Assembly (NCBI GenBank): GCA_028279745.1 | Contig: JANQNC010000001.1 | Location: 1,260,001 to 1,292,000 of the forward strand | DNA from: Candidatus Nanoarchaeia archaeon | GTDB taxonomy: Archaea > Nanobdellota > Nanobdellia > Woesearchaeales > JANQNC01 | Direction: 5' to 3' | DNA length: 32,000 nucleotides | Shown here: in pieces, positions 10,168 through 32,000 of the stretch | Numbering within the stretch: the first letter of the stretch is position 1 | Layout of the letters: each line of letters begins with the position of its first letter | Program-made: the position numbers and the translations under genes | The notes under the pieces: model-generated | Seen by the model: only the letters and a program-made list of their open reading frames with translations | Told to the model about the DNA's origin: nothing | The model's database searches: none

Positions 10168-10198
10168 TTTTATCACCTATCCCTTAGTCCTTATAATT

Positions 10199-15066: not shown

Positions 15067-15068
15067 AA

Positions 15069-16322
15069 ATGAAAGAATACGATGTTGTGATAGCAGGAGG
15101 GGGTCCCGCAGGATTGAGCGCTGCGATGGAGATCGATAAATGTGAAGATATACGTTCACTTATACTAGAGAAGGGCAAGATCAATGTTTCTAAGAAATCA
15201 ATATGTGTCTGGAAACATCAGCTTAAAGATTGGGATGTTGAGGACTGTATCGACAATGAGCCAAGACTAATCAGCATAGGTTCATCTGTCAGCAATGAAT
15301 TCTCGATCCACAAAGGAGTGATGGCCGTGTTGAATGTTAACAAGATGCTGGAGAAATTCAGTAAAAGAATCAAAAAGTGTGAAGTTAAGCAGAATACCCG
15401 TCTGAACAGCTTTTATTATGTGGGTGATGGGCTTATCTTAAAAACGACCAGAGGAAAGATAAAAACAAAATTATTGATTGATGCAGCAGGCTATAAAAGC
15501 CCAGCTGTAAAGAAGTTCGGCTTGCAAAAAGACAATTTTTTTTATCAGTGTTTTGTAGTCGATTGTAAAGTTTCTGAGTATGACAAGATGAACGTTCAAC
15601 TGCTCTGGGAAATAATAGATTGGAAAAAAAAGGAAAACTTTTGGATAGAGGCACATTCAAAAAATTCGATCTCTATCGGTGTAATGACTGTGAGGAAAAA
15701 GAGATGTTCCTACGGATACCTCAAATCAAGAATTTTTGAGTATATAAAAAAAAAGAAAATCAAATGCACCCCCTGTGATTATAAGTGGGGGGTCTTGCCT
15801 ATGTATAACTTTGAGAAGACATATTTTAACAGGGTCCTGTTAGCGGGAGATTCTGCTTCACAGGTTTTGCCTAGCAGCGGGTACGGCTGTGCGGCAGCAC
15901 TAAGAAACGGGAGACTTGCAGGAAAAACATGCATCCGAGCTTTGCGCGAGGGAGACTATAGTGAGAAGTACCTTAAGTTTTACTCAAAAGCATGGAAGCA
16001 CAGTGTAATATGTAAGTATGACTTGAATGCGATCTTTCTGCTTATCCAGAGCAGGATGACTGCATCCGAAACAGAAGCATACATAAAGTTAGTGCAACAA
16101 CTTGACAACAGATCATATAGAGAAGCGCTGACAGGTTCAGGAAGACCTTCGCTTTTATTAATCGAATTTTATCTTTTTTTAAAAGAATTCCCTATATTAA
16201 ATGTGATAAAGAGGCTAAAAGTTAAAGATTATCTAAAATTGTTTGCTTTGACCCTGCGCCTGGTAAAAGATTCTTTCTACGAAACTTATCATAACCTAAT
16301 GGGGACTAACTGGCTGAAGTGA
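15069..16322 (+). CDS. FAD-dependent oxidoreductase, geranylgeranyl reductase / lycopene cyclase-like (paralog 3)
   Basis: YDVVIAGGGPAGLSAA, LLIDAAGY, and LAGDSASQVLPSSGYG. By eye it is roughly half identical to paralog 2. It starts 2 nt after the upstream stop. Confidence 0.8.
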   Translation: MKEYDVVIAGGGPAGLSAAMEIDKCEDIRSLILEKGKINVSKKSICVWKHQLKDWDVEDCIDNEPRLISIGSSVSNEFSIHKGVMAVLNVNKMLEKFSKRIKKCEVKQNTRLNSFYYVGDGLILKTTRGKIKTKLLIDAAGYKSPAVKKFGLQKDNFFYQCFVVDCKVSEYDKMNVQLLWEIIDWKKKENFWIEAHSKNSISIGVMTVRKKRCSYGYLKSRIFEYIKKKKIKCTPCDYKWGVLPMYNFEKTYFNRVLLAGDSASQVLPSSGYGCAAALRNGRLAGKTCIRALREGDYSEKYLKFYSKAWKHSVICKYDLNAIFLLIQSRMTASETEAYIKLVQQLDNRSYREALTGSGRPSLLLIEFYLFLKEFPILNVIKRLKVKDYLKLFALTLRLVKDSFYETYHNLMGTNWLK

Positions 16323-16346
16323 TCTATTATAAACAACATAGCAAAG

Positions 16347-16353
16347 TATAAAA
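16347..16353 (+). promoter_or_regulatory. putative internal TATA box (TATAAAA) upstream of the 790-aa gene
   Basis: Centred about 28 nt upstream of the ATG at 16378, in the 55-bp gap after paralog 3. Confidence 0.3.
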
Positions 16354-16377
16354 CTGACTTATAAAATAAATACTCCT

Positions 16378-18750
16378 ATGGATACTGATCTTTATTGGGA
16401 AGAAGAGGTAGCAAGCAGCGGGTTCAATTATTTCTTTGATTATGTTATATACAAGCTGAAGGAGAAAAATTCTTTAGTCGGGGAAAAAGAGATCGTTGAA
16501 CAGACCCTGGAAAAATTATATGCAAAACTCAACCTGACAACTGATCCAGAAAAGAAAAAGCTGTATGATCTCTTATTTGACCCAAGAGAATATTCAAAAA
16601 AGTATTCAAAGAAGGCATCTTTCTGTTTAGCAAACAGGATGATAAGCTCTTTAGAAGAAATTGTGGGTGATGCAAATTTTGCTGAGAACGTGGCACTTCA
16701 TGTGATCAATGGGAAATCCAGGAGCCAATACAAGCTCGAGATACAAACTAACCAGTTAGATACAGTCGGCAGGATTGCCAGAAGAGTGAATATGTTCTTC
16801 ACTGAGAAGCTTAGCGGTGTTCTATTAAAAACATATATGGTGTTTACTAAAAATAAATATGAGTTTCTGTTGAATGTTGTAAAGAAAGCGCTGAAGGATA
16901 TATTTCCTTCAGTCAACCTGGAGATTGAGTTCCATAAGAAACATGCTAAACTGAACTATAGTTATAATGATGATAGTAAAATGAAATATCATAGCGTGGG
17001 CATAGAAAACTCTTTCATAAGGCAGGTCCAGCACACGCCCTTGGTGGTGGGTCTCCCGAGTTTTAAGGCTAAACTGATCAAGTCAATAACAAGAGGAGAT
17101 GATAAGACTGTTGTCAGGATGGACTATGTAGAAAGGGGACGAGACACGATCGAAGGTCTGCTATTGAAGATAGAAGAGCAGAAAGCTGCAAAACAGGTTA
17201 TAGAAGAAAAGAACAGGGAAAATGAACTTTTAGTCAAAGAGTTAAGCGACAGTTCAACCTATATAATCGCGGGTAAGATCGCTAGGGCGTTTGCTTACTC
17301 AAACCAGTACGAGTTATTCTTATGTGCGGGAAATTTTGATGCCGCAAAAAATTCATTGAAGGAGGCCCAATCAATGTTTCAAGAAGCAGTTACAGATTAT
17401 GTATCTGTAGATAAGGCATATACAGATGTAAGAAAGACTGATTTTGATTTTGAAAGAATATTGGGGGATTTTGTTGCAGTATCAGCACAAGCAAAACTTG
17501 CAGGCGCTACTGTGAGCTCCTTAAAAATGAAGAAGGTGAGAGGGAGTAATAAAGCAGTCATTATTGAGAGAAGGACAGATCCTCTACAGATCGAAGGTGA
17601 GAGGTCTTGGATAAAAGACTATCGTAAGTTTGACAGGGGAGAGGATGAGAATAATGTCATAAACTATCTTAAGAGAAATTTTTCAGACGACCCTATACTT
17701 AAATTTCCCTCTTTTCATCTCTTTATACGCCTGGAGAGAAATCCTGCGATGGGGATAAAGGAGGATAAAGCTTTAGCTCTGACTACTGAGAGGAACGAGT
17801 CAGAGGTTGATACGCTTTACGATGAAGTTTTAGATGCTGCCAACGCAGAAGAAAGGTTCTCTTTGCTTGAAAAGAAAGTAGACCTGATAGCTAGATGTGC
17901 TGCAGTGGGTCCTTGGCATATAGTAAGAGAAGGAAAGACCCTTCTTCTTGAAGAGGATTATTTTAACTTTCTAAGGTCAGAGTTTGATGGCATAGACATA
18001 TCTTCGATCTTTGCATACTTAGAACCTGTGGTGTCTGCTTTATCAAAGTATCCTATCAGGGGCTATTTTAGAGATAATAATCTGGGCAATTTTTACAACG
18101 ATGAGATGTTTGATTTTGACACTGCACTGATAACCACACCTCTTGCTGATCATGCGAAATTCTTGAATCATGTAAGGCTGTCTGAAGATCGGGAGCGATC
18201 AAGAGCGTTTAAAGAGAAATTTTTGGATGATGTGTTAAAAGCATATAATAGAGAAGCAAAAGATCTGTTGCATAAGAAGCTTGTTCAGGTCGATCTTAAA
18301 AGCTTGTTGCTTAAAAAGATAGATGTCTATTCAAGAAGGTTATACTTGGGAAGTGACGCCATGTCTGATGCTGTTAAAGCTCTGCAATCATATCCTTTTT
18401 CCAGCATCCGAGGAGGTATCGAGATCCTTAAAGGAGAGCTTGAGTCAGGCTCAAGATTAGAACCATACCTGGAAGGTATCATTGAGGATATTGAAGAAGC
18501 GAAGTTTATCTTTTATAATGAGACAATCTTCACAAGTTGTCTTGCAAAAATACCCTATCACCTGAACTTGTATGGAAAAGGGGTCTCTGAGTGGATCGAA
18601 GATGCGGCAGATGCAGTTGACCAGATAGGGCAGGAAAGATTTGAAGAATACCGTAAGAAATATTATCCAGGTGGAGATAAAGCGTCATCAAAGAAGCTTT
18701 GTGGTCTAAAGAAAAGGTTGGAGTCGTTGGAGAATGATCTATCAAAATAA
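16378..18750 (+). CDS. large cytoplasmic hypothetical protein, 790 aa, no recognised domain
   Basis: Uninterrupted 2.4-kb ORF with ordinary, helix-rich composition. No TM, no P-loop, no nuclease or metal motif that I can identify. It overlaps the downstream PHP gene by 17 nt. Confidence 0.8.
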   Translation: MDTDLYWEEEVASSGFNYFFDYVIYKLKEKNSLVGEKEIVEQTLEKLYAKLNLTTDPEKKKLYDLLFDPREYSKKYSKKASFCLANRMISSLEEIVGDANFAENVALHVINGKSRSQYKLEIQTNQLDTVGRIARRVNMFFTEKLSGVLLKTYMVFTKNKYEFLLNVVKKALKDIFPSVNLEIEFHKKHAKLNYSYNDDSKMKYHSVGIENSFIRQVQHTPLVVGLPSFKAKLIKSITRGDDKTVVRMDYVERGRDTIEGLLLKIEEQKAAKQVIEEKNRENELLVKELSDSSTYIIAGKIARAFAYSNQYELFLCAGNFDAAKNSLKEAQSMFQEAVTDYVSVDKAYTDVRKTDFDFERILGDFVAVSAQAKLAGATVSSLKMKKVRGSNKAVIIERRTDPLQIEGERSWIKDYRKFDRGEDENNVINYLKRNFSDDPILKFPSFHLFIRLERNPAMGIKEDKALALTTERNESEVDTLYDEVLDAANAEERFSLLEKKVDLIARCAAVGPWHIVREGKTLLLEEDYFNFLRSEFDGIDISSIFAYLEPVVSALSKYPIRGYFRDNNLGNFYNDEMFDFDTALITTPLADHAKFLNHVRLSEDRERSRAFKEKFLDDVLKAYNREAKDLLHKKLVQVDLKSLLLKKIDVYSRRLYLGSDAMSDAVKALQSYPFSSIRGGIEILKGELESGSRLEPYLEGIIEDIEEAKFIFYNETIFTSCLAKIPYHLNLYGKGVSEWIEDAADAVDQIGQERFEEYRKKYYPGGDKASSKKLCGLKKRLESLENDLSK

Positions 18751-19666
18751 GTACGTTGACTGTCATGTGCACACTTTAAGGTCGGACAGCACAGAACCTC
18801 TAGGTAAGCTGGCAGAGAGGGCAAAAAAGTGCGGGCTTGAAAAGATAGTAGTGACTGATCATCATTGTTTCTATCCTGCAGAGGAGCTTGAACGGGTAAG
18901 CAAAGAGAAAAATATCATCATCGAATCAGGAGTTGAGATCTGGACAACATTCTTAGGATGTGATGTTCATATACTTGGTTACGATCTAAACCCTGATGAG
19001 GTGCTGGTCAAGTCACTGCGTCCTGCGCTAGATGAGGAGAACGAGCTGGCCAGGCGAGCCATCAAAGAGTATATTGATCTGGGTATAACCATGCCTTCTT
19101 TTGAGGAGATCAGGACGAGATCTTATGGGTCCCTTGAGCCGATCTCACGCAAAGAATACGTTGATCTGAAGGATGTTGCGGCAGCAAGACACCATCTGCA
19201 TAACGTGGATTTTGATGCTGCTTTAAGAGAAGTACAGAGAACAAAGTATACTGGAGAATCAACAAGACTTATCGATGTAGAATCAGACTTTGAGCATATG
19301 CCTGTCGCAGCTGCTATCAATATGATCAAAAACTCAAACGGTAAAGCAGTGATAGCGCACCCGGGATTTGTATTTCATACTTCTAGACGACCTAAGATAG
19401 AAGACTGGTATTTTTTGTATGAGCTGTTCAGAGAGTGTTCAAAGGAAGACATAGATGGTGCAGAGATCGTATCTTTGTGGCATGATGAGAGATATGGTTA
19501 CAATTTCCTTGCTGAGCTAAATGCGTCTTCGGAAGATCATGCAGTAAAGAAATACAAAGAAGAGATATATGGGATTGTAAAAAAGTTTAGGCTGCATACA
19601 AGAGGTTCTGATGATCATGGATGCTACAAGAAGCAATTTTTGCTTGAAAGACTATTTAACTATTGA
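18734..19666 (+). CDS. PHP-domain metal-dependent phosphoesterase (TrpH/YciV, COG0613-like)
   Basis: VDCHVHTLRSDS, VVTDHH, GVEI, VHILGY, VIAHPG and GSDDHG match the PHP metal-ligand motifs. Confidence 0.85.
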   Translation: MIYQNKYVDCHVHTLRSDSTEPLGKLAERAKKCGLEKIVVTDHHCFYPAEELERVSKEKNIIIESGVEIWTTFLGCDVHILGYDLNPDEVLVKSLRPALDEENELARRAIKEYIDLGITMPSFEEIRTRSYGSLEPISRKEYVDLKDVAAARHHLHNVDFDAALREVQRTKYTGESTRLIDVESDFEHMPVAAAINMIKNSNGKAVIAHPGFVFHTSRRPKIEDWYFLYELFRECSKEDIDGAEIVSLWHDERYGYNFLAELNASSEDHAVKKYKEEIYGIVKKFRLHTRGSDDHGCYKKQFLLERLFNY

Positions 19667-20830: not shown

Positions 20831-21625
20831 ATGTTATCAACTAAGAATGCAATCGAACCATTGATCGGGCTTGGACTAAATAAGTATGAGGCAAAAGTGT
20901 ACCTCACTTTGATAGGGGAAGGAATCAGTACAGCTAAGAATATTTCGGATATTACTGGAATCCCTTATGGAAAAGTTTATGAGGTTATAAACGCGTTGTC
21001 TTCAAAAGGGTTCTGCACGATACTTCCTTCAAAACCCATGAAGTGTCAGGCCATATCTCCTAGGGATGCTGTGATAAACGCAAAAAAAGATGTTGAAGAA
21101 AGATATGATAAGCTTGAAAGCCACATAGTGTCAGAGTTGGAGCCTCTGTTCGTAGAGAGCAGAAAGTTTGTGGAGCCCAAAGGGATATTCTGGGTGATAA
21201 ATGGGAGAGCAAACGTGGTGAAAAAGATAGATGAGCTTATCCAGAAGGCAGAGAAAAATATATGCATACACTGCTCACCAAATAGTCTTTCAAGACTTGT
21301 CCTGCATAAGGAGCTGTTGAGAGAGGCAAATAAAAGAGGCGTCAACATATCTATAGCAGGTGTTGTGAACAACGAAGTCCTTGAAGAGATAGACTCATTA
21401 GACTTTTGCGACATAAGAAAAGTAAAAAGTGCAAATAACAACTTGTTCTCTATAGACGATAAAGAGTGTTTGATAATAGAGCCGATGCCAGATGATGAGA
21501 ATATATTATATGGAAGAGACTTGGGAGTTTGGGTATCATCCTCTTCATTCACTAAGTTCATGTGCGATTTTTTTGCCACAAACTTTAAGAAAGCAAAATC
21601 TGTTTTTCCTCCTGTCAGTAAGTGA
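20831..21625 (+). CDS. TrmB family transcriptional regulator (paralog A)
   Basis: LGLNKYEAKVYLTLIGEGISTAKNISDITGIPYGKVYEVINALSSKGF is a canonical TrmB winged-HTH. A C-terminal TrmB-type effector domain follows. The GGGGGGGTGA SD-like motif lies 6 nt upstream of the ATG. Confidence 0.85.
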   Translation: MLSTKNAIEPLIGLGLNKYEAKVYLTLIGEGISTAKNISDITGIPYGKVYEVINALSSKGFCTILPSKPMKCQAISPRDAVINAKKDVEERYDKLESHIVSELEPLFVESRKFVEPKGIFWVINGRANVVKKIDELIQKAEKNICIHCSPNSLSRLVLHKELLREANKRGVNISIAGVVNNEVLEEIDSLDFCDIRKVKSANNNLFSIDDKECLIIEPMPDDENILYGRDLGVWVSSSSFTKFMCDFFATNFKKAKSVFPPVSK

Positions 21626-21688
21626 ACAGGATACTTTTTTTTCTTAATATAAAAAATAGATAAATATTCTTTATGTAACTACAAGATT

Positions 21689-22486
21689 ATGGAAAACACT
21701 GACAGAGCGTTTAGGATACTGTCTGATATCGGACTGAATAAATATGAAGCAAAAGTGTATCTAACATTGGTGAGTGAAGGGGTAAGCACCGCAAAGAACA
21801 TATCAGAAATTACGGGGATCCCATATGGGAAAGTATATGAGATAATAAACACTTTATCATATAAAGGATTTTCTATGATACTCCCTTCAAAACCTATGAA
21901 GTATACGGCAATATCGCCAAAACAGGTTCTTTTCTCTTCTAAGAACGAGACGCTAGATAAGTTTAGGAAAATAGAAACAGATATAGTGAACAATCTGGAA
22001 CCTTTGTTTATGAAAAACAGGCAGTTCACACAACCAAAGAGTGTGTTCTCACTAGTCAACGGCAGATCTAGTGTAGTGAAGAAGACTGAGGAGCTGATAA
22101 ACAAGGCTAACAAAAATATACATATCCAGTGCAGTGCAAATTCATTGTCGCGGCTAGTGCTCCACAAAGAGGCGTTGAAAAATGCTGCAGACAGAGATGT
22201 AAAAATAGCTATTGCAGGCATAACCGATGAGAGCAATAAGAAAGAGATAAGCTCTTTAGGGTTTTGTGATGTAAGGCAGATAAAAAGATCAAGAAGCAAT
22301 TTCATCTCAGTAGACGCGAGTGAGTGTTTAGTTGTGACCCCCTTTCCAGACGATGAGAACATAATCTTCGGAAGAGATACAGGAATGCACATACTAAGCA
22401 GCTCATTCACGTCTTTTACTGATAATTTTTTCATATCAAGTTTTAATAGAGCAAAAAAGATTGATTTATCCACTAAGCTGAGATAA
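21689..22486 (+). CDS. TrmB family transcriptional regulator (paralog B)
   Basis: IGLNKYEAKVYLTLVSEGVSTAKNISEITGIPYGKVYEIINTLSYKGF. It is colinear with paralog A over its full length and roughly 55 percent identical by eye. Confidence 0.85.
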   Translation: MENTDRAFRILSDIGLNKYEAKVYLTLVSEGVSTAKNISEITGIPYGKVYEIINTLSYKGFSMILPSKPMKYTAISPKQVLFSSKNETLDKFRKIETDIVNNLEPLFMKNRQFTQPKSVFSLVNGRSSVVKKTEELINKANKNIHIQCSANSLSRLVLHKEALKNAADRDVKIAIAGITDESNKKEISSLGFCDVRQIKRSRSNFISVDASECLVVTPFPDDENIIFGRDTGMHILSSSFTSFTDNFFISSFNRAKKIDLSTKLR

Positions 22487-22583
22487 AAAACTTACCTGAT
22501 ATCTCTTGATTAAAAAAGAATAATAACTTCTTTCCCTTAGACTTTCAAAAAATAACTTTAAACGTAAAAGGGTGAGGGTCAAA

Positions 22584-25500
22584 ATGGTAAAAATAATGAA
22601 CTTTAAGTCTATCAAATCTATTTTATTTCTGTTTGTATTTTTTTTGTCTATCGTAGTTGTATCTGCAGCAAACTGTTGGGATTATGATCTCCAAACTAAT
22701 TGTGAAAGTGCAGACTGTAGCTGGAATGAAGATCCCTGGGGGGGATGGTGTGAGGAAAAAGGATGCTGGAATTTTTGGTCAGAAAATGAATGTACAAGTT
22801 CGACAAGCACTATAAATAGATCTTGCAGCTGGCAATCATCTTCATCAGGTTATTGTGGGGAGTTGGATTGTTGGTCTTTTGACGGGACAAACGAGACAGC
22901 ATGCGTAAATAATACATATAACATAGAATGTGAATGGATAGATGAATATAATGCAACAACCTGGGACTTCCCCTGTATGGGCCCTCCAGAAAAACAATGC
23001 TGGAACTATACAACATCTGAATCCTGCAGTGCGGTTGCAGGGTGTAGCTGGGGGATGTGCTCTAAAAAGGATTGTTGGGACTATTCTGATACGGATGAAT
23101 ACACTTGTGAATCTCAAGTCGGATTCAACAAAAAATCTTGCGAATGGAAAAGCTATTCTTGGGGCAGTGAATGTGTAGAACGAGGGTGTTGGGACTATAG
23201 CAATGTAACTTCTTGTGAATCAAATGGATGTAAGTGGGACGGAAGCTGTATGGAGCTTTCTTGTGGAGAATTTACTGGAGTAAATGAAAGTTATTGTGTA
23301 AGCAACAGCGCAAACCTAAGCTGTGAATGGGATTCAGCAGGTAAGTGGTGTATGGAAAAAGGATGCTGGAACAATGATGAAGGAAGTTGTGACAACGGCC
23401 TTGGCTGTTTTTGGGATACTTTTGAAGGGGGGTGGTGTCAAGAGCAAGGGTGCTGGAACTGGGAAAATAACCAGACAGCATGTGAAGATACAGGTCTTCA
23501 TCCAGGACTTGAATGCACTTATGATGTTAGCGGAGGGTGGTGTTATGAAGACGTTGGCTCCAAATCCTGTGCAGACATCAACGTAGAAAGAGACTGCATG
23601 GATACTTTTTACTGTTGGTGGGATCACTCTCAGAGCACATGCAACGATCCTGGCGCAGGTATAGAGACTGAGTTTGAAGAATGGAACCCTGGCTGTTATA
23701 TCTTTGATATGGATCAAAATGCCTGTGGAAATGTTACTGGTTGTTATTGGAGCGGCGGTGTGTGTGAAACAAACATGACTGTGCTTCCTACTAATGAACT
23801 AAACTGCAGCCTTATACAAGACTCAGATATGTGTAATAACATACCTGCATTGAGCAGCTGCTGCAGCTGGCAAGCTGGAGAGTGTGTGGCAGATAGATTC
23901 GATCAGTCTTGTCGTGAGGAGATGCAGGAACCGCCTGAAGGAGCACATTATTGTGAAGACTATGTGGCATACACAAGCAAAGATGTATGTGAACAGATAG
24001 CGGGAAGCCCCTGGTTTATGCCGTGCGAGTTTGATAATTCTACTGAAAGATGTGAGTTTAAAGGAGATGATGTCTTTGGAGATGGAGACAAGAACATAAT
24101 GAAGATAGACAATGAGATAAATTGTGAAGCTGCAGGAGGAAAATGGATCCTTGACACATATCCGAGTACGAACAATGCAAGCACAGCCGTAAGACTATCT
24201 CTTGGAAGATGTGACTTTAAATTTGATGAAGAAAGAAACTGCAACAAGGAATGTTTTGCATGTGAGTACAAACAAGACAAGACAAATTGGGGTACCGTTG
24301 CAGATGCAAGGAAAGCATGTGTCGATTCAGAGCTTGGACTTTGTAGATTTATAGAAGATCCAGATGCGCCAAACAGCTACGGTTATTGCGAACCAAAAGA
24401 GGAATTCAAGAAAGGGCTTGTAGGGGGAGACTGCAGCACTGATTGTGGTGCATGCACCTATATGGGAGACCCTGCAGCATCAGCAGGAAAAAGGCCATCA
24501 GATTACTGTGAGGGCAGCGATGCAAAATGCAAGTGGGTAGCAGATCCTTCACATCCTGATGATGAAAGCTTTGGAAGATGTGCATCAAAATCCGAAAAGA
24601 CATGTGAGGATAGATGCGATAAATGTTATGATGAAAGCAACTGTCAAAGCACAGGAGGAAAACAAGGAGACTCAAGTGCAGCAGCAGTATGTGAATGGAA
24701 CAATGGAATATGCTCATATAAATCGGGAGCAAGCGAGATGGAAGTATGTTGGGATGGACAGGACAACAACGGGGATAATAAGGTAGACTGCGCAGATTCT
24801 ATGTGCTGGTCAGACCCCTTTTGTGGCGGAGAGTTCATGTTTGGAGACTTCGGAAAAGACTGTTTCATGTTTAACGAACAATCAAGCTGTGAAACTGAAG
24901 GTTGTGCATGGGTAAACGAGAACTGGGGCGCATGGTGTGACATGCCTGGAGCAGTATGCTGGAAAAAAGACGGAACAAACCAGACAGTTTGTGAAGATGG
25001 CGGAAGCTGTGAATGGCACTCAGGCTTCGGAGGATTCTGCGAGCAGGACTGGGATATGGGGGGAGCTGCAAACTCATGCTTCTCAGCGACAAACCAGACA
25101 GGCTGTCAAGCACTATCAGACCAGAACTGCACCTGGGTTATCGACGAATGGTGCAGCGAAAAAGGAGGATTCTGTGACCCAGACCCTTCTTACAGCGGAG
25201 CATGGTATGATTGTGCACAGCATGACGTGGATGGAAATGCAACTTGTGAATCACATGCAGAATGCAACTGGTATGTGGATCCTTGGTGTCAGCAACAAGG
25301 AAGCGATGCAGGATTCTGTGATCACAAAAGCTTTGCGTGCTGGCAGTATGATGACGGTCAAAACATATGTGAGAATTCAACAAACTCAGAGTGGTGTGTC
25401 TGGATGACTGACCCTTACTCTCCTGAAGGAGGATTCTGTGAAGGAAAGATGATGAGTGGAGAATCAGGAAGCTGTTGGGATCAGAGCAACCAGACCAGCT

Positions 25501-28460
25501 GCAGCGAAGCATCAGGATGCAGATGGATGAGTGGATTCTGTGACCCTCCTGGATTTGGAGGAGAGATGATGCCTGGAATGCCTGGCGGTGAAGGAGAAGG
25601 ATCTGGAGGAGACCTGGGAGGATTTGGAATGCAGTGTTTCCTACATGATGGGGATCAGACAAGCTGCGAAGACCAGACAGGATGCGGATGGTTTAATGAG
25701 CCAAATCCGTTCTGTGACATAAACTTTGAAAGCAACTGTCCGCAGTACTCGTATGATCAAACTGTGTGCGCAGACAACGCAAAATGTAAATGGAATCCTC
25801 AAGGTAATTTCTGTGATGAAAAGCCATTTGAGTGTTTCTGGAACACTACACTATGGGCAGATGAGACTTTGTGTGATGCACATCCGTTATGCTACTGGTC
25901 TGATGAGGCAGGTGATGACCATTGCCACCCTATAGGGTTCAGCGTCTCAACAGAGTCAGCGTGTGATGCATTAGGAGACAGCTTCAGGTGGACAACAGGA
26001 TGGTGCAACCCTGCACTAGCGACTGAGTTCTTCAGTGGGATGGAGATGGGCGGACCGCCGGTACCGTTAGGAAGCGATCCAGATGATTCTGTATTTGAAG
26101 ATGAAGTAGACATAACTGAGTTTGGGATGAAAGACATGGGCAATGCATTTGGATTTGGAGTTACTGTGGATGACCCGCAAAATTCAGCGGCGTGCAACAA
26201 TGTGAAGATGGAGACGGGTACAGGTACAGGAACAAACACGACAAAATTCTACTGGTACCTGGATACTGATGGAAACACGACAAATAACTGTGACTTAAGG
26301 CACAGCTCGGGCTCAGGAGGTTATGAATTTTACATAAAGAACGAATGGAGCTATGATGAAAGCACAGGGACCACAACAGAAAGTCCAGCAGCTTACAGGT
26401 GTTTAGATGGTGAGTGGAATCTTGCAGAGGTAAGAGTTAGCAGTCAAAAGCAGCTGATGTGTAACCAGATTGGCGGAGCGATGGTAGCTATAGACAAGAC
26501 AGAGCTTGAAAAATTCCCAAGTCTATACTCTACAAACGTGGATATAAGAGTTGCAGTAGCAAGCGCAGATAGTGATGGAACTGCCTCAAACCCAACAGAC
26601 ACAGCGAGCCCAGGGTGGGTAACTCCAGGTTCACAAGACTTTGAGATACCAGAACTTTATGGATACGAGACTGACTGGATCAAAAAAGCATCTAATGAAG
26701 CAGCAGGAGCAGGTTTTGTACAGTATAATAAGGAAGCGGATTGCTGGACTGAAGAGGGATGTGAAGATTACAGCTGTAAAGGGCACACGTTCTGCGTAGA
26801 AAACAATTATGGTGTTGAGTCAGCAGGGTGGACTGATACAAGAGTCCCTAAACTTATAGGGTCAATAAAAGAAACATACCCTGATGGGGCATTTTTCGCT
26901 TATTTTACAGACAAACCTGCAAATGGAACTTTCTTGCTTTATGGAGATGATGAGATATGCAGCGAGTCAAGCTTGACAGATGCGATATATGACGTCGGGA
27001 TATACAGCAACTATAGCAAAGAGTACAAGCTGTGGCATACGGCAGAGCTTTTCAACGACTCAGGAGTGAACTCATTAAACGCACCATTATCTTCAGGAAC
27101 AACATACTACTATAAGATCAAAGTGTGTGATGAAGGAGGTAAATGTGGGATGAGCAAGTGTTCAAGCTTTAGGACAGAAGAATCTCAAGAAGACTGTACG
27201 TTCTGTAAGTTTGTTTCAAGGATAAAAGCGCCTGATGGATGGAACGTCTATTACGACATAGACCAGGATGGAAATTATGAGCACTGGCAAGGAAACGTTC
27301 TGGGAACAAAAGACGGCATGTTTACAAACTATACCCTTGGCAGGAAAGCAAATATACTCATCAACACAACTGATGGAACCGCACATATGGAGTTCATAAA
27401 TGCGACGCTTACCAAGACAGGTATGAGTCCAAAGATAAGAGACATAGAGACAAGCACAGCTCTAAAACAAGGAACGCTGAACACATCGTCAGGTGAAGAG
27501 ATAGGGTATGTGGGGATGATAGAAGAGACAAGGGACAAGATTATACATAATTTATACCCCGAGATATGTAGGATCAAGATACCTGGAACGGGATCATGTG
27601 ATGAGTTATGGCACTGTGACAGTGATGGAGAAAATTGTGTTGATAGGACAGCAGAGGCTACTTTGGTAAGTACGGGATCAGACTCGTGCGAATGGCAGCT
27701 ACCCTACTGTGAGTTCTCGACTTGGGCAGGAGGTCAGCCAGCCACTCCTTCAAGCAGCTCAAGCAGCTCTGGAGGAGGGGGAGGAGGCGGTTCCGGCGGA
27801 ATTGCAGGAAGCACCTCATCAACTTCGGTTGTTGAAGTATCTCACTACTACACATCGATAGCTGAAGGTGAAAGTATAACCCTGCCAATAGAAAAGGAAG
27901 GGATAGCGCTCACTAAAAACACGTTCATCGCTGGAGAAGATTTAAGTGATATGAACCTGGTGATGAGAAAAGTAGAGAATAGTTCAGAGCTTCCTAAAAA
28001 AGAGGAGGATGCATATCAATATCTAGAGATAACTGCATCAAACGTAGAAGCAAGCAGCATATCAAAAGCTACGTTAGAATTTAAGGTAGATACAAGCTGG
28101 ATGACTGGCAATGACTATGGAGATGTAATCCTTAAAAGATATACAGATGGATGGGATGAACTTCCGACAAGATTCATCAAGACTGAAGGAAGATACTCGC
28201 ATTACAGCGCAGAAACACCTGGCTTTAGCTATTTTGCGATAGTTGGGATAAAGGATGATCTGGCTGATGCAGAACAACAAGACTTACCTCAGCAGGAGCA
28301 GCAGCAAGACCCCGAGCTTGAAGAAACAGATACACCTCAACAGCAAGTGACGGGAGCTGCGGTAGCGCCTGGTGGGGGAGAAGGTGTGAGTGTGACAAAC
28401 ATCCTTATCTTTGTAGTCCTATTGGGTACGGTGGTGCTTATAATTGCAAAGAAGAGATAA
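22584..28460 (+). CDS. giant Cys/Trp-rich repeat surface protein (1,958 aa) with signal peptide, two 4-Cys module arrays, FN3-like and PGF-pre-PGF-like domains, and a C-terminal TM anchor
   Basis: Single uninterrupted ORF. I prefer the ATG at 22584, with GGTGA 8 nt upstream, over the track's GTG at 22572. Signal peptide is MVKIMNFKSIKSILFLFVFFLSIVVVSA. The C-terminus ILIFVVLLGTVVLIIAKKR is a TM helix. See findings for the domain map. Confidence 0.9.
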   Translation: MVKIMNFKSIKSILFLFVFFLSIVVVSAANCWDYDLQTNCESADCSWNEDPWGGWCEEKGCWNFWSENECTSSTSTINRSCSWQSSSSGYCGELDCWSFDGTNETACVNNTYNIECEWIDEYNATTWDFPCMGPPEKQCWNYTTSESCSAVAGCSWGMCSKKDCWDYSDTDEYTCESQVGFNKKSCEWKSYSWGSECVERGCWDYSNVTSCESNGCKWDGSCMELSCGEFTGVNESYCVSNSANLSCEWDSAGKWCMEKGCWNNDEGSCDNGLGCFWDTFEGGWCQEQGCWNWENNQTACEDTGLHPGLECTYDVSGGWCYEDVGSKSCADINVERDCMDTFYCWWDHSQSTCNDPGAGIETEFEEWNPGCYIFDMDQNACGNVTGCYWSGGVCETNMTVLPTNELNCSLIQDSDMCNNIPALSSCCSWQAGECVADRFDQSCREEMQEPPEGAHYCEDYVAYTSKDVCEQIAGSPWFMPCEFDNSTERCEFKGDDVFGDGDKNIMKIDNEINCEAAGGKWILDTYPSTNNASTAVRLSLGRCDFKFDEERNCNKECFACEYKQDKTNWGTVADARKACVDSELGLCRFIEDPDAPNSYGYCEPKEEFKKGLVGGDCSTDCGACTYMGDPAASAGKRPSDYCEGSDAKCKWVADPSHPDDESFGRCASKSEKTCEDRCDKCYDESNCQSTGGKQGDSSAAAVCEWNNGICSYKSGASEMEVCWDGQDNNGDNKVDCADSMCWSDPFCGGEFMFGDFGKDCFMFNEQSSCETEGCAWVNENWGAWCDMPGAVCWKKDGTNQTVCEDGGSCEWHSGFGGFCEQDWDMGGAANSCFSATNQTGCQALSDQNCTWVIDEWCSEKGGFCDPDPSYSGAWYDCAQHDVDGNATCESHAECNWYVDPWCQQQGSDAGFCDHKSFACWQYDDGQNICENSTNSEWCVWMTDPYSPEGGFCEGKMMSGESGSCWDQSNQTSCSEASGCRWMSGFCDPPGFGGEMMPGMPGGEGEGSGGDLGGFGMQCFLHDGDQTSCEDQTGCGWFNEPNPFCDINFESNCPQYSYDQTVCADNAKCKWNPQGNFCDEKPFECFWNTTLWADETLCDAHPLCYWSDEAGDDHCHPIGFSVSTESACDALGDSFRWTTGWCNPALATEFFSGMEMGGPPVPLGSDPDDSVFEDEVDITEFGMKDMGNAFGFGVTVDDPQNSAACNNVKMETGTGTGTNTTKFYWYLDTDGNTTNNCDLRHSSGSGGYEFYIKNEWSYDESTGTTTESPAAYRCLDGEWNLAEVRVSSQKQLMCNQIGGAMVAIDKTELEKFPSLYSTNVDIRVAVASADSDGTASNPTDTASPGWVTPGSQDFEIPELYGYETDWIKKASNEAAGAGFVQYNKEADCWTEEGCEDYSCKGHTFCVENNYGVESAGWTDTRVPKLIGSIKETYPDGAFFAYFTDKPANGTFLLYGDDEICSESSLTDAIYDVGIYSNYSKEYKLWHTAELFNDSGVNSLNAPLSSGTTYYYKIKVCDEGGKCGMSKCSSFRTEESQEDCTFCKFVSRIKAPDGWNVYYDIDQDGNYEHWQGNVLGTKDGMFTNYTLGRKANILINTTDGTAHMEFINATLTKTGMSPKIRDIETSTALKQGTLNTSSGEEIGYVGMIEETRDKIIHNLYPEICRIKIPGTGSCDELWHCDSDGENCVDRTAEATLVSTGSDSCEWQLPYCEFSTWAGGQPATPSSSSSSSGGGGGGGSGGIAGSTSSTSVVEVSHYYTSIAEGESITLPIEKEGIALTKNTFIAGEDLSDMNLVMRKVENSSELPKKEEDAYQYLEITASNVEASSISKATLEFKVDTSWMTGNDYGDVILKRYTDGWDELPTRFIKTEGRYSHYSAETPGFSYFAIVGIKDDLADAEQQDLPQQEQQQDPELEETDTPQQQVTGAAVAPGGGEGVSVTNILIFVVLLGTVVLIIAKKR
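22674..24060 (+). repeat. protein-level tandem array A: about 13 copies of the 4-Cys module C-[WF]-x5-9-C-x4-9-C-x-W-x3-10-C
   Basis: Hand-parsed modules include CWDYDLQTNCESADCSWNEDPWGGWC, CWNFWSENECTSSTSTINRSCSWQSSSSGYC, CWDYSNVTSCESNGCKWDGSC and CWNNDEGSCDNGLGCFWDTFEGGWC. Some nucleotide identity exists between copies: GGAAAAAGGATGCTGGAA occurs near 22757 and again near 23353. Confidence 0.8.
24861..26010 (+). repeat. protein-level tandem array B: about 9-10 further copies of the same 4-Cys module
   Basis: Examples are CFMFNEQSSCETEGCAWVNENWGAWC, CWKKDGTNQTVCEDGGSCEWHSGFGGFC, CWDQSNQTSCSEASGCRWMSGFC and CFLHDGDQTSCEDQTGCGWFNEPNPFC. Confidence 0.8.
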
Positions 28461-28514
28461 CCTTTTCTTCTTTTATCGAGGGGTTGTCGATAGGGTCAGG
28501 AGGTGTGTAAAACC

Positions 28515-29255
28515 ATGAGTCTTAAACTAACAGCTTGGTTGCTTGTAGCATTATGCTTGTCTTGTGCTGCATTATCGCTACCCCCAAATCCTGAACTTTA
28601 CTGGGGTTATGCATACATTGATAACAATCCAGCAAATGGAAGCTTGATAGCTGAGACTGGCGAAGGAGATATTATCGTTAATTTATCGCTTCCTATGGAT
28701 CCTGAGTACCCTGGCAGCTATAGCATAAAACTAACCTTCGACGACAAAATGACTCGGCACAGTAAAGAAGGAGCTACTGAAGGAGAAAAGATAGTGTGGA
28801 AGGTAGACGGATTGGTTGCAGCTATAACAGACACGGCTGAAAGAGACAAGGTAAACAATAATTTTAGCATAAAAGCGTTTACTCCAGTAAATATGACCGT
28901 AGGTAACTTAACGCACGATGCCATGGTGGATGTTGGAGAAATGGTAAAGATAAATGCAAAGGTTGAAAATAAAGGACAGATCGATATTGATGGATTTGAT
29001 GCGCTATTATACATAAATGATTCATTACAAGAAAAGGCACATGTTAACTATACTCTAAACGAGGGGGAGAACTTATCTGTTGCGTTCTACTGGCAAGCAG
29101 ATATAGAAGGGAACTATTCCTTTTCAGTTAACGTTTCAGCAAGAAACTGTGAAGAGTGCAAGATACAGAGAGCATCTTCCGCTTCGGCAATCTCAGTAGT
29201 GAGAAATGAGCAGGCCAACAACTCAGTATCAAACCTAAAAAATGAATCCTCTTGA
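28515..29255 (+). CDS. secreted CARDB-domain protein (246 aa from ATG 28515)
   Basis: Signal peptide MSLKLTAWLLVALCLSCAALS. The CARDB-like segment is VGEMVKINAKVENKGQIDIDGFDALLYINDS...EGENLSVAFYWQADIEGNYSFSVNV. GGAGGTG lies about 10 nt upstream of the ATG. It starts 54 nt after the giant gene, so it is probably co-transcribed. Confidence 0.75.
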   Translation: MSLKLTAWLLVALCLSCAALSLPPNPELYWGYAYIDNNPANGSLIAETGEGDIIVNLSLPMDPEYPGSYSIKLTFDDKMTRHSKEGATEGEKIVWKVDGLVAAITDTAERDKVNNNFSIKAFTPVNMTVGNLTHDAMVDVGEMVKINAKVENKGQIDIDGFDALLYINDSLQEKAHVNYTLNEGENLSVAFYWQADIEGNYSFSVNVSARNCEECKIQRASSASAISVVRNEQANNSVSNLKNESS

Positions 29256-29347
29256 TATCTTAAGCTCACACTATTTTAAATATGTTTTATTACCCTAAGT
29301 GCATATAAAAAAGATACTTATGGCTAAGCATATATCTAGGACTGATC

Positions 29348-29569
29348 ATGCACAAAATTAAGACAAACGAGGTAGAGAGTCCTGTAAAAAAAGCGCTTGA
29401 TTGGTTTGCAAACGGTTATCAGTGTGCAGCAACAGAACGAGAGAAGAAAAGCGCAGATCATGCTGCAAGAGAATTTCTCGAGGGAGTTCAACAAGAGATC
29501 AAAAAAGAAGGTTTGACTGTTGAGTATTTCTTGGCGTATTATAATAAAGAAAAACAAAGAAAAGATTAA
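29348..29569 (+). CDS. small hypothetical protein, 73 aa
   Basis: ORF only. Charged and helical-looking, with no family recognised. Confidence 0.35.
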   Translation: MHKIKTNEVESPVKKALDWFANGYQCAATEREKKSADHAAREFLEGVQQEIKKEGLTVEYFLAYYNKEKQRKD

Positions 29570-29625
29570 AAAAAGTTGCTGACCAAATAATAACTGATTA
29601 TATGATCAAAAACCAAAAAATAATT

Positions 29626-29650
29626 AAAAAAAGCTTTGCGCTTTTTATTT
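29626..29650. terminator. possible bidirectional terminator: weak hairpin AAAAAGC-TTTGC-GCTTTTT flanked by oligo-T on both strands
   Basis: It lies between convergent genes ending at 29569 (+) and 29683 (-). There is a T-run on the plus strand (CTTTTTATTT) and a T7 run on the minus strand. Archaeal termination typically uses oligo-T. Confidence 0.3.
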
Positions 29651-29682
29651 CGCGATGTTTCTTAAATCATGTTTAATCCTGT

Positions 29683-30141
29683 CTAGTTTGCGCACGTACC
29701 TTCCAGCTTGTTTCCGTCGCCTGTAAAGTTATAGTAGGCACTGGTCTTTGCATCTTGGTAGTAGATGCTTGTAGTGTAGCTGAAGGACTGGCCAGCAGTG
29801 CAGGCTGCAATAGCACCTGTGTATGTTTTTGATCCGCCAGGGGCCAACGTGCTTGTTGAACTCTCAAGGTCAACACCATTAACCATAACATCAGTCAAAA
29901 CTATCTGGTTTCTTAGGTTGTTCTTAACGACTACAGTGTCGGTTCCACTTGCAGAGACTGCATAATCTGTAACTGCAACGTCTGCACTAGCCCAGTAAGA
30001 TGCTATCGCTCTTCCTGTAACGCCTTTTCCTATCCCTGGAATCCCCCCCATGGCAACAACAGCAAGTAATGCGATTGTAATTACTACTCCCACAATTATT
30101 ATGTATTCTGTTGCGCCTTGCGCTTTTTTAGAAAATCTCAT
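29683..30141 (-). CDS. archaeal type IV pilin-like protein with class III signal peptide (DUF361-type N-terminus)
   Basis: MRFSKKAQG/ATEYIIIVGVVITIALLAVV has a basic leader, then a G/A cleavage context, then the conserved E and hydrophobic helix typical of prepilin-peptidase substrates. I chose the ATG at 30141 because GAGGTGAT lies 8 nt upstream; the track start at 30153 is a GTG. Confidence 0.8.
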   Translation of the reverse strand: MRFSKKAQGATEYIIIVGVVITIALLAVVAMGGIPGIGKGVTGRAIASYWASADVAVTDYAVSASGTDTVVVKNNLRNQIVLTDVMVNGVDLESSTSTLAPGGSKTYTGAIAACTAGQSFSYTTSIYYQDAKTSAYYNFTGDGNKLEGTCAN

Positions 30142-30292
30142 TTTTATTATCACCTCTGATTTATTGCAAAAATTGTTTTTACTTACGGTATGGGGAATTA
30201 AAAACGTATTAACCTTTTTAGTACCTTTAAAAAGAGAAATTGTTTTATCTCCTGTGGGGAGTTAGTGGGGGAAGGGGGTTTTGATGGGTGAG

Positions 30293-31315
30293 CTATATTT
30301 TAAGGAATGCATCCATTACAAATCTTGATAATGCAAAAATGATAAAAGAGAACGTTATGATGAGCGGCGCATATTTTAATCCCTGTTTCTCATCCCCTTC
30401 AGAGATTACACCTGTCAGTATGCTTGCAAGTAACGAAGTTACAAATATTATGATCACAGAAAGCATAAAAATGAAATCTGGAGTTATGCTTACTGTTCCT
30501 GCTAGAAAGGACATTCCAAATTCAGCATCAGAAATATTTGAGGAAGACTGCATATTTGTTATTATCTTTATGAACTGTATTGAAACTGATAATAATAACG
30601 GCGCACCAAAACCAACTATAAATATTATAAGCATGCTGTACATCTTGGTATTTGCGACCAAGTCTTTCTTAAGCGATCTTGTTTCAGCGATGTCATTTGC
30701 AAGGTCTTCCAAGAGCTGGGCCAGCTGCCCGCCAGATCTTATTGAAGTGACGAAGAGCTTCATAGACCTTTCGAGCAAAGAAGATCTGCTTCTTCTTGAC
30801 ATGTCCAAAAGAGCTTTCCCAAAAGAGGTCATGCCTAACGACTTGTTAGTTGCAATCTCGATCTCCTCTTTCAAAGGTCCGAATTCTTTTCTTGCAGCCA
30901 GCTTCATAGCTTGAAAGGGAGTCATTCCTGCCCTAAGGTTTGAAGATATGATCTGGAGCATATCAGGCAACGACTCTTCAATCCTTCTTGTCTTGTCTGC
31001 AGCTTTTAGGTACACAATAAGATATACAAGAAGCTGCACTGCAAGTATAGATACCAAAGCAATAATGATGTATGCAGAGGAGAAAGACAAGTTTATGTAA
31101 CGCGTGTCTATGCTGACTGCATCTGGGAAAAAAAGTTTGTGCAACAACACAACTATAGAGAAGATAAGCATGGAGATTATTAATGAACTTCCGATCCAGT
31201 AATCAGTACTTTGCTCATTTTTCGTGTATGACAAGAGCTCTCCAAGGTGCTGTCTATATCCTGAAGGAGCTAACATCGTAAGTGATCTATACAACCTGTA
31301 TCGCACCCCCATCAT
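30293..31315 (-). CDS. type II secretion system F-domain pilus platform protein (TadC/PilC-like), 340 aa
   Basis: The T2SS-F signature is LPDMLQIISSNLRAGMTPFQAM...SIRSGGQLAQLLEDLANDI, flanked by TM helices. The true start is MMGVRYRL at 31315, which makes an ATGA overlap with the upstream stop. The track's upstream 63 codons overlap the preceding gene and look non-protein-like. Confidence 0.8.
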   Translation of the reverse strand: MMGVRYRLYRSLTMLAPSGYRQHLGELLSYTKNEQSTDYWIGSSLIISMLIFSIVVLLHKLFFPDAVSIDTRYINLSFSSAYIIIALVSILAVQLLVYLIVYLKAADKTRRIEESLPDMLQIISSNLRAGMTPFQAMKLAARKEFGPLKEEIEIATNKSLGMTSFGKALLDMSRRSRSSLLERSMKLFVTSIRSGGQLAQLLEDLANDIAETRSLKKDLVANTKMYSMLIIFIVGFGAPLLLSVSIQFIKIITNMQSSSNISDAEFGMSFLAGTVSITPDFIFMLSVIIIFVTSLLASILTGVISEGDEKQGLKYAPLIITFSFIIFALSRFVMDAFLKI

Positions 31316-32000
31316 ATGTTCACCACAGGTCTTCTTTTTTTTATCATGCCTATCATTATGATCTGCAACGCGAAACAGCACACGACAAACGCGATAAATG
31401 CAGCGTTGCTTAAGTTCATACCTGCAAAAGATGAAAGTATGACCATCATAGTGATGCCTATTGTCGGGATAGCAACAGCAAACAACATGTAGATCAAAGA
31501 CCACATGTTCAACTCTTTTGAATAGTCTTTTATCTTGGTCTTATGTTCATGAGTCAGATTGGCGATTATGGTCTTTAATGCGCTCTTGATGCTTGAGCCT
31601 GCGTGTATGGCATTTATCAGCTGCCACAACGTTTTTCTTAGATGTTCTGATCCGGACCTTACTGCAGCATTTTCAAGACTTTTATCTAATGGTGAACCTG
31701 TACTCACCTGTCTTGAAACTTTTCCAAACTCTTTGCTTATTAAACCATAATCTGATCTAGATATGTTGTCAATCGAATCATATAAAGAAGTTCCAGATCC
31801 GATCTGAAGCAGCATATCCTTAAGCGCAAAGACAAGGTTCTTCTCAAGCATATCTGCTTTTTTTCTTGCAAGTATCGAAGGATATCTCACAAGCAGGTAA
31901 AAAAGAATTGCAGAGAATATAACGCTGATCGAAACACTGATCAACAATGAGTTATGAATTCCTGCTTGTCTAATGAGATAAGCAAGGCTAAAAAAAAATG
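31312..32000 (-). CDS. type II secretion system F-domain pilus platform protein (TadB/PilC-like), N-terminus probably beyond window
   Basis: The T2SS-F signature is LVFALKDMLLQIGSGTSLYDSI...INAIHAGSSIKSAL, with C-terminal TM helices. The track start at 31947 is a TTG. The frame stays open to position 31998 (FFFSLAYLIRQAGIHNS...), so the start is undetermined. Confidence 0.75.
   Translation of the reverse strand, partial: FFFSLAYLIRQAGIHNSLLISVSISVIFSAILFYLLVRYPSILARKKADMLEKNLVFALKDMLLQIGSGTSLYDSIDNISRSDYGLISKEFGKVSRQVSTGSPLDKSLENAAVRSGSEHLRKTLWQLINAIHAGSSIKSALKTIIANLTHEHKTKIKDYSKELNMWSLIYMLFAVAIPTIGITMMVILSSFAGMNLSNAAFIAFVVCCFALQIIMIGMIKKRRPVVNI

Follow-up and report, generated by a model that had tools for sequence, protein, structure and literature searches.

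Type IV pili (T4P) of the archaeal clades 1 and 2 are encoded by an assembly ATPase, two tadC-like genes, one major and about five minor pilins, and a large candidate adhesin, and archaeal T4P loci are accompanied by KaiC-family ATPases, Roadblock proteins, and assorted transcription regulators (Makarova et al. 2016). For the archaeal regulator TrmB, six of the seven sugar-contacting residues (Asn305 to Glu326) sit in the C-terminal subdomain, with Asn305 and Gly320...Glu326 as the contacts in this effector subdomain of the Pyrococcus protein, and the relatives TrmBL2 and TrmBL3 (264 aa) are devoid of this C-terminal sugar-binding subdomain (Gindner et al. 2014). The 32,000-nt stretch analysed here (the window; Candidatus Nanoarchaeia archaeon, assembly GCA_028279745.1, contig JANQNC010000001.1, positions 1,260,001 to 1,292,000) offers two concrete objects for studying how the uncultured Woese-, Pace-, and Nanoarchaeota among the DPANN archaea build their surface and contact their hosts, a T4P cassette and a gene for a giant cysteine-rich membrane protein, together with a pair of TrmB-like regulator genes and a gene for a secreted CARDB-domain protein. 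The giant protein or the cassette could serve as a marker or handle (antibody or expression target) in enrichment cultures.

The initial annotation had joined these genes into one apparatus of regulators, giant adhesin, CARDB protein, and pilus. All the genes it described were recovered in place by a map of open reading frames (ORFs) and profile searches (Pfam, NCBIfam), and its assignment to a small-genome DPANN archaeon agrees with relatives among the Woesearchaeota and Nanoarchaeota and a source contig of 1.30 Mb. The joint apparatus, however, did not withstand a comparison of about 100 related genomes. The synteny of the giant gene was followed in 82 loci (79 from GTDB species genomes, with up to 10 kb on each side, and three metagenomic contigs), that of the pilus genes in the contexts of three close ATPase homologues (61-66% identical; L084, L085, and L086), and that of the TrmB-like genes in a scan of JGI metagenomes, which gave 72 loci, 32 of them non-redundant and of the window subfamily and 16 with at least 5 kb of flank. 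The proposed arrangement was found in none of the 82 giant, three cassette, and 16 TrmB loci, and since the adjacency of the giant and CARDB genes to the rest is not conserved anywhere in relatives, the single unit as proposed is refuted by the standard that the initial annotation had itself set. We instead regard the region as probably a mosaic of a self-contained pilus cassette, a pilus-linked TrmB pair, an independent giant gene, and an orphan CARDB gene. In the simplest reading, the giant and CARDB genes are lineage-specific lodgers and chance neighbours of the pilus genes. The synteny comparison removes an attractive but unsupported operon-style attachment story; the pilus neighbourhood as such is not new, and what is new is a widespread unannotated giant family and the recurrent company of TrmB-like, KaiC-GTPase, and Roadblock genes kept by the cassette.

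Pilus cassette and TrmB-like regulators

The cassette, which would start at 29683 and continue for about 9 kb outside the window, was followed on a Logan contig (L001) that is 100% identical to window positions 25445-32000 and reaches 9.3 kb beyond the window, giving a total of 41 kb of readable sequence around the locus. The major-pilin candidate (29683-30141, minus strand, 152 aa) starts with MRFSKKAQGATEY followed by a hydrophobic helix. Its class III signal (PF04021; E=2e-4, 21.5 bits) scored just below the gathering score of 23.7 bits, and cleavage is predicted at KKA|QGATEY, which would leave Q at +1 and E at +5. Upstream of it on the same strand lie two T2SSF platform genes. The TadC-like protein (30293-31315, 340 aa; PF00482 59.1 bits, cut-off 25.2) aligns with UpsF positions 277-476 of 484 and corresponds to the C-terminal half of the two-domain UpsF/ArlJ; exactly the same protein is present on L001. 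The TadB-like gene (31312-32000, continuing to the window-equivalent position 32205; 297 aa, PF00482 60.1 bits, UpsF positions 49-231) shares an ATGA overlap with the TadC-like gene and is cut by the window end. It had first been listed as a complete ORF with a TTG start (31312..31947), but its frame is open to the window end and encodes the 297 aa on L001 (9077-9970). Directly upstream, with a 4-nt overlap, the T2SSE assembly ATPase (L001 7287-9080, window-equivalent 32202-33995, minus strand; 597 aa, PF00437 108.6 bits, cut-off 24.9) was found where the initial annotation had expected it, just beyond 32000. The inferred pilus layout is supported as well; with its ATPase, paired TadC-like genes, and class III pilin it matches the clade 1/2 archaeal T4P of Makarova et al. 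(2016).

Divergent from the ATPase, L001 encodes a KaiC-like ATPase of 279 aa, a protein of 691 aa, and four small proteins whose N-termini resemble those of pilins, and both the 691-aa and a 139-aa protein of this operon carry the K/R-x-Q...E motif of the pilin (Q+1, E+5). Beyond this operon follow a fusion of KaiC and a small GTPase (406 aa) and a small membrane protein. The fusion gene (L001 386-1606, window-equivalent ~39676-40896, plus strand) codes for KaiC-like ATPase and Arf/Ras-like GTPase domains in 404-406 aa and has orthologues in L086 (13881-15095), L088, L094, L107, L111, L119, and L120; in L086 it is followed by the small membrane protein and then by a Roadblock/LC7 protein. No prepilin peptidase was found in the 41 kb of window and L001 or within 10 kb of the cassette in L084-L086, and, judged by its gene content, the pilus locus appears complete apart from this enzyme. 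The likeness to clades 1 and 2, including the Methanococcus maripaludis system that the initial annotation called Epd, extends to the VirB11/T2SSE ATPase, the two separate TadC-like genes, the small class III pilin, about five more pilin-like proteins, the large candidate adhesin, and the KaiC and Roadblock genes nearby. Differences are the lack of a prepilin peptidase and of a FleN/MinD ATPase in the 41 kb, and regulators of the TrmB-like and KaiC-small GTPase fusion types, neither of which appears in the main text of that paper.

ATPase homologues number in the thousands in DPANN archaea. In the three close contexts (L084, L085, and L086), both operons of the cassette recur with an unchanged set of 10-11 genes, comprising KaiC, the large protein, and four small proteins together with the ATPase, two T2SSF proteins, and one or two pilins; the pilin has its orthologues after the TadC-like gene (L084, L085) and beside a TrmB gene (L086). 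Neither a giant homologue nor a CARDB gene occurs at these three loci. Because the cassette is kept gene for gene without them, it can be regarded as an autonomous conserved unit. Within it, the translationally coupled ATPase-TadB-TadC operon would provide the motor along with a membrane platform in two pieces, the 152-aa pilin would be expressed from its own promoter, the four small pilin-like proteins of the divergent operon may serve as minor pilins, and the 691-aa protein might act as a tip adhesin. Cleavage of the prepilins before Q+1 would fall to a prepilin peptidase encoded elsewhere, whereupon the ATPase would drive assembly.

The two TrmB-like regulators (20831-21625, 264 aa, PF01978 65.2 bits; 21689-22486, 265 aa, PF01978 78.9 bits; both on the plus strand) are paralogues with 56% identity. 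Orthologues of regulator 1 reach 72% identity in L013, 66.5% in L085, and 75% in L087, and the tandem duplication predates the split from L013 and L085. Both proteins combine the N-terminal winged helix-turn-helix (wHTH) domain of the TrmB family (PF01978), with Y50-E51 in the recognition helix, with the N-terminal part of Regulator_TrmB, and their matches to the effector-domain model stop after 125-135 of its 233 positions (positions 2-135 of PF11495 in regulator 1). Likewise, the alignment with the NCBIfam TrmB equivalog ends at position 201 (regulator 1) and 188 (regulator 2) of 338. The C-terminal subdomain with the sugar contacts is missing from both, the proteins ending at residues 264 and 265, and canonical sugar sensing is consequently not expected for the pair. 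A sugar transporter or glycolytic operon was found beside the TrmB genes neither in the window nor in the 16 orthologous loci. In length, in the N-terminal wHTH with Y50-(D/E)51, and in the absence of the sugar subdomain, the pair is similar to TrmBL2 and TrmBL3 of Thermococcales, but the similarity is at family level (51 bits with the NCBIfam TrmBL2 model, against a cut-off of 530 bits), and the genes here are tandemly duplicated and located in a pilus/KaiC context.

Recurrent neighbours of the TrmB orthologues are KaiC-type ATPases and pilus genes. In the 16 loci with sufficient flank, a KaiC-like gene was present in eight, the KaiC-GTPase fusion in six, and the pilus cassette in three, and the giant gene was absent from all 16. 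The fusion gene lies directly downstream of TrmB on the same strand in L088, L107, L111, and L120, with gaps of 17-84 nt. A tandem TrmB pair in L085, 66.5% and 57% identical to that of the window, converges on the pilus cassette from a distance of about 4 kb, and the single orthologue in L086 (48% identical) adjoins a pilin gene. The gene order shared by L086 and L117 is TrmB, pilin, minor-pilin operon, ATPase-T2SSF-T2SSF, KaiC-GTPase, small membrane protein, and Roadblock/LC7; in the window genome, the bracket from TrmB to KaiC-GTPase likewise encloses the cassette, with the core operon inverted and with three additional genes inside (giant, CARDB, and an ORF of 73 aa). Even the closest orthologues of the pair (L087-L092, 68-75% identical) are not followed by a giant gene. 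The link between TrmB and pilus put forward in the initial annotation thus gained support from three further genomes, while TrmB orthologues followed by the giant gene are confined to the window and its nearest relative, L013.

Most likely, the short TrmB-like pair belongs to the pilus/KaiC/KaiC-GTPase neighbourhood, whose genes it would control as DNA-binding regulators, being neither sugar sensors nor dedicated to the giant gene. A search for operators gave no inverted repeat (palindrome) in 22487-22583 and only weak ones elsewhere, and alignments of upstream regions showed BRE/TATA-like blocks (BRE, transcription factor B recognition element) and no clear operator. In Myxococcus, T4P polarity is controlled by the Ras-like GTPase MglA and the Roadblock GTPase-activating protein MglB. 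In the loci compared here, T4P genes likewise have a Ras/Arf-like small GTPase domain and a Roadblock/LC7 protein in their vicinity, although this GTPase forms a single polypeptide with a KaiC-like ATPase domain, the host is an archaeon, and the resemblance is one of gene content. By analogy, and speculatively, the TrmB-like regulator, the KaiC-Ras-like GTPase fusion, and the Roadblock protein may bracket and control the pilus as an archaeal counterpart of MglA/MglB. As a further observation, the two TrmB orthologues of L090 (6043-8394) are separated by a pilin gene of 147 aa, which is read from the opposite strand and whose product begins with a class III signal peptide (MHNKAQAAMEF...).

The giant cysteine-rich protein

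The giant gene extends on the plus strand from 22584 (ATG, 1958 aa) or 22572 (GTG, 1962 aa) to 28460 and encodes a type I membrane protein with 138 Cys, 75 Trp, 31 N-x-S/T sequons, and an isoelectric point of 4.1. A Sec signal peptide (…VVVSA|ANCW) precedes 4-Cys ‘CW’ modules (aa 35-330 and 760-1150), which flank a unique Cys-rich core (aa 330-760), and these are followed by beta-sandwich domains (aa 1150-1730), a PGF-pre-PGF domain (aa 1760-1892), an acidic Q/E/P stalk, and a transmembrane helix ending in KKR. Since its signal peptide is of the Sec type instead of class III or pilin-like and its C-terminus forms a membrane anchor, the giant protein cannot be a pilus subunit. The PGF-pre-PGF domain (TIGR04213, 77.1 bits, cut-off 28) is the sole curated match besides one repeat of the ‘acidic double-disulfide’ type; the repeat was found in all 21 family members compared, the PGF-pre-PGF domain in 10 of them, and a Pfam domain above cut-off in none. 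Lectin, carbohydrate-binding, or known adhesin domains were not detected in the giant protein by Pfam profile searches. Together with the missing sugar subdomain of TrmB, this undercuts the suggestion that sugar-responsive regulators serve a glycan-binding adhesin.

Homologues are widespread, with 191 among 5.8 billion proteins, nearly all of them with 1800-2100 aa and with 35-65% identity along almost their entire length, from Woese-, Pace-, Nano-, Aenigm-, and Iainarchaeota. The alignment of 21 members contains about 150 invariant Cys and conserved residues from ~33 to ~1720, followed by a variable C-terminal part, and common to every member are a Sec signal peptide, a stalk of acidic, low-complexity sequence, a single C-terminal transmembrane helix, and a basic tail. 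A profile search with the Cys-rich core (aa 300-800) retrieved 92 cluster representatives (50% identity) at E<=1e-30 among 1.84 billion. Some core-bearing variants (P0128, P0132, P0135, and P0140) are expanded family members of 2500-5641 aa in which the core is far from the N-terminus. A description of the family was not found in the collection of literature that was searched for DPANN, Cys-rich, S-layer, and PGF-pre-PGF surface proteins. A foreign origin, considered because of the higher GC content of the giant gene, was rejected; at third codon positions its GC content (GC3 0.39) is like that of the neighbours, the excess being at codon positions 1 and 2, and there is consequently no sign of such an origin.

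From these features, we take the giant to be a constitutive, membrane-anchored, disulfide-rich surface glycoprotein of DPANN cells. It would be transcribed independently, exported by the Sec pathway, anchored by its C-terminal helix, and held at a distance from the membrane by its acidic stalk, and it is probably N-glycosylated and stiffened by up to 69 disulfides, forming a constitutive coat or contact protein. The closest described counterparts are archaeal S-layer-type glycoproteins with PGF-pre-PGF and PGF-CTERM, with which it shares the Sec signal, the very large acidic ectodomain, many N-glycosylation sequons, the PGF-pre-PGF domain, the low-complexity stalk, and the C-terminal membrane anchor. 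Unlike these, it carries 138 Cys, about half of its homologues have no PGF-pre-PGF domain, and a PGF-CTERM sorting signal was not detected, the C-terminus (...GVSVTNILIFVVLLGTVVLIIAKKR) having neither a PGF motif nor an NCBIfam match for one. It also differs from solved S-layer proteins, to which no match in sequence or fold was found beyond generic Ig-like domains; a search of PDB sequences with the family profile gave no meaningful match. Two structural results limit the case for a coat. For the Cys-rich core (aa 300-800), AlphaFold gave no usable model, the predicted local distance difference test (pLDDT) score being 51.5. The model of aa 1150-1730 shows three all-beta domains (pLDDT 78.6), for which Foldseek against PDB retrieved only generic FN3/Ig/macroglobulin arrays, so that the proposed surface-coat role draws on architecture and conservation.

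An alternative is that the giant is a fast-evolving, host-specific adhesin like other giant DPANN surface proteins and not a constitutive envelope protein. It is large, extracellular, acidic, and rich in repeats and glycosylation sites, it contains Ig/FN3-like domains as are common in adhesins, and some family members are expanded to 2500-5600 aa. Length and Cys framework, however, hardly vary among members from several DPANN phyla, whose habitats are very different, and each of the giant loci examined has one clear full-length orthologue. Further, the giant proteins of window and L013 are 64% identical over 1981 aa, close to the TrmB proteins (72% and 65%), whereas the syntenic enzymes between the two are far less conserved (27% for a 790-aa protein, 29-37% for geranylgeranyl-reductase (GGR)-like proteins, 43% for PHP, and 52% for AbrB-PhoU). 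As the giant is far better conserved than these enzymes, a rapidly evolving host-specificity adhesin is disfavoured, and together with the lack of a lectin or known adhesin domain this makes the alternative appear doubtful. Within the mosaic, we consider an S-layer-like coat possible rather than probable, and a host-contact adhesin and some other role each somewhat less likely still, so that the S-layer-like role is slightly favoured over that of a host-specific adhesin. More speculatively, and with low confidence, the giant might be an undescribed core envelope or host-interface protein across DPANN lineages, a disulfide-braced glycoprotein of about 2000 aa that evolves more slowly than neighbouring cytoplasmic enzymes. 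As such, it may be the major surface-layer or cell-contact protein that has long been missing for these uncultured archaea.

Gene neighbourhoods of the giant and CARDB genes

The flanks of the giant genes (1.02 Mb in total, about one DPANN genome's worth) were searched with all proteins of the window and L001, and their 1057 neighbouring genes were clustered all against all. No conserved neighbour emerged in the 82 loci, the commonest cluster being present in nine of 79 loci. By Pfam type, the 133 immediate neighbours are a housekeeping mix (Metallophos 7, NDK 5, PGK 4), and the TrmB, CARDB, and T2SS families are outside the 25 commonest among them; where the giant is 60-63% identical, its gene is preceded by PGK and followed by Metallophos or DsbA. 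Iterated profiles over the flanks found T2SSE in three loci, TrmB in six, and CARDB in none. Given that three T2SSE loci per 1.02 Mb are about what one DPANN genome holds, T4P genes are not enriched near giant genes. The combination of a CARDB gene and convergent pilus genes beside the giant was repeated in none of the 82 loci. In a few genomes, the first gene downstream of the giant homologue belongs to the DsbA/thioredoxin family (L083 11893-12540; two cases among the 133 immediate neighbours), which may be relevant to the disulfides of the giant but is too rare to be called an association.

The secreted CARDB-domain protein (28515-29255, plus strand, 246 aa; PF07705 36.7 bits, cut-off 22.7, aa 132-215) bears a signal peptide, and its gene starts 54 nt after the giant ORF. 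Among 5.8 billion proteins it matched only itself, and a comparison with a secreted protein encoded close to the L087 TrmB orthologue gave no significant similarity; it is a lineage-specific secreted orphan. The spacer to the giant gene contains a T-rich run after the giant stop and a Shine-Dalgarno-like GGAGGTG before the CARDB start; read-through from the giant into the CARDB gene is conceivable. A small basic ORF of 73 aa (29348-29569, plus strand), called as a gene on the Logan contig as well, follows the CARDB gene.

Only one locus, that of the closest relative (L013), retains the block upstream of the giant, with three GGR-like genes, the 790-aa gene, PHP, AbrB-PhoU, TrmB, TrmB, and giant in this order, and its downstream side carries response-regulator genes and neither CARDB nor pilus genes. 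No tRNA or Rfam RNA was found at the synteny break. An A-rich block with a TAATA-like element (GATTAAAAAAGAATAATAAC; 22508-22527, plus strand) lies ~60-75 nt upstream of the giant ATG, and an A-rich block with TTAATA (GTACTAAAAAGGTTAATACG; 30205-30224, minus strand) ~65-85 nt upstream of the pilin ATG. The former is kept upstream of the giant orthologue in L013 and resembles the latter, and similar blocks precede the pilins in L084 and L085. They are candidates for separate BRE/TATA promoters of the giant and pilin genes, and with a promoter of its own the giant gene would form its own transcription unit.

The TrmB pair might nevertheless regulate the giant gene locally in this lineage, alone or besides pilus control. 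In both window and L013, the order TrmB-TrmB-giant on one strand is kept along with the spacer block, the highest identities within the syntenic block are those of these three genes (72%, 65%, and 64%), and the giant homologues of L024, L043, and L081 have TrmB-family genes no more than 2.5 kb away. These TrmB genes, however, are distant members (~29% in L081) in differing orientations, and seven TrmB genes per 1.02 Mb of giant flank are unremarkable for so large a regulator family. Considering also the closest TrmB orthologues without a following giant gene and the lack of a palindromic operator in 22487-22583, we regard this local control as rather unlikely. An apparent pairing of TrmB and giant genes in L110-L114 was rejected; the weak matches there cover only the PGF-pre-PGF domain of a different protein of ~1100 aa with six Cys.

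Several observations nonetheless speak against a mosaic of independent parts. The order TrmB-TrmB-giant maintained in L013 (64-72% identity) is compatible with a local regulatory link in the lineage. In L011 (3493-14467; CAYNHV010000011), the giant homologue is immediately preceded on its strand by a different T4P operon, which encodes an ATPase, a T2SSF-containing protein of 997 aa, and a T2SSF protein and has pilin-like genes beyond it on the upstream side; apart from the window, no other locus places T4P and giant genes so close together, and the arrangement differs from that of the window. T2SSE genes occur within 7 kb of the giant in L032 and L044 as well. The 9-mer GAGATAAAA is present ~100 nt upstream of both the giant (22480-22488, plus strand) and the pilin start (30243-30251, minus strand), oriented with the genes. 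With three copies in the window, compared to 0.86 expected, and three reached in four of 100 shuffles, it could be a shared operator or chance, and it is the sole sequence hint of shared control. Finally, neighbours at the giant and TrmB loci were detected by single-sequence or small-profile searches, which divergent pilins or CARDB domains could have escaped.

That TrmB pair, giant adhesin, CARDB protein, and T4P form one co-regulated module for attachment to a host or surface is in our view very improbable: all parts are surface-related or regulatory and lie within 13 kb, a DPANN archaeon likely depends on cell contact, and both the operon in L011 and the 9-mer common to the giant and pilin upstream regions fit such a module, but the CARDB protein is an orphan, the giant has a Sec signal and membrane anchor and is no pilus subunit, the cassette itself encodes a candidate adhesin (691 aa, N-terminus class III-like), the T2SSE density near giant genes does not exceed one or a few per ~1-Mb genome, and the relatives with a cassette and without giant and CARDB genes already suggest independence.

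Other genes in the window

Upstream of the regulators, in a block at 12663-19666, three tandem paralogous FAD-dependent GGR-like genes are followed by the gene for the 790-aa protein, which has no Pfam match, and, with a 17-nt overlap, by the PHP-domain phosphoesterase gene. This whole block is syntenic in L013, with only 27-43% identity. Two more secreted or anchored proteins without Pfam domains are encoded at 5634-7289 (plus strand) and 7318-8178 (minus strand). For the 286-aa secreted or anchored protein, a homologue with 31% identity is located in L087 (3508-4407), a few kb from the closest orthologue of regulator 1. A third KaiC-like ATPase (241 aa) is encoded at 9451-10801 on the minus strand and adjoins a rhomboid protease gene; a rhomboid gene is also present at the far end of the pilus cassette locus of L084.

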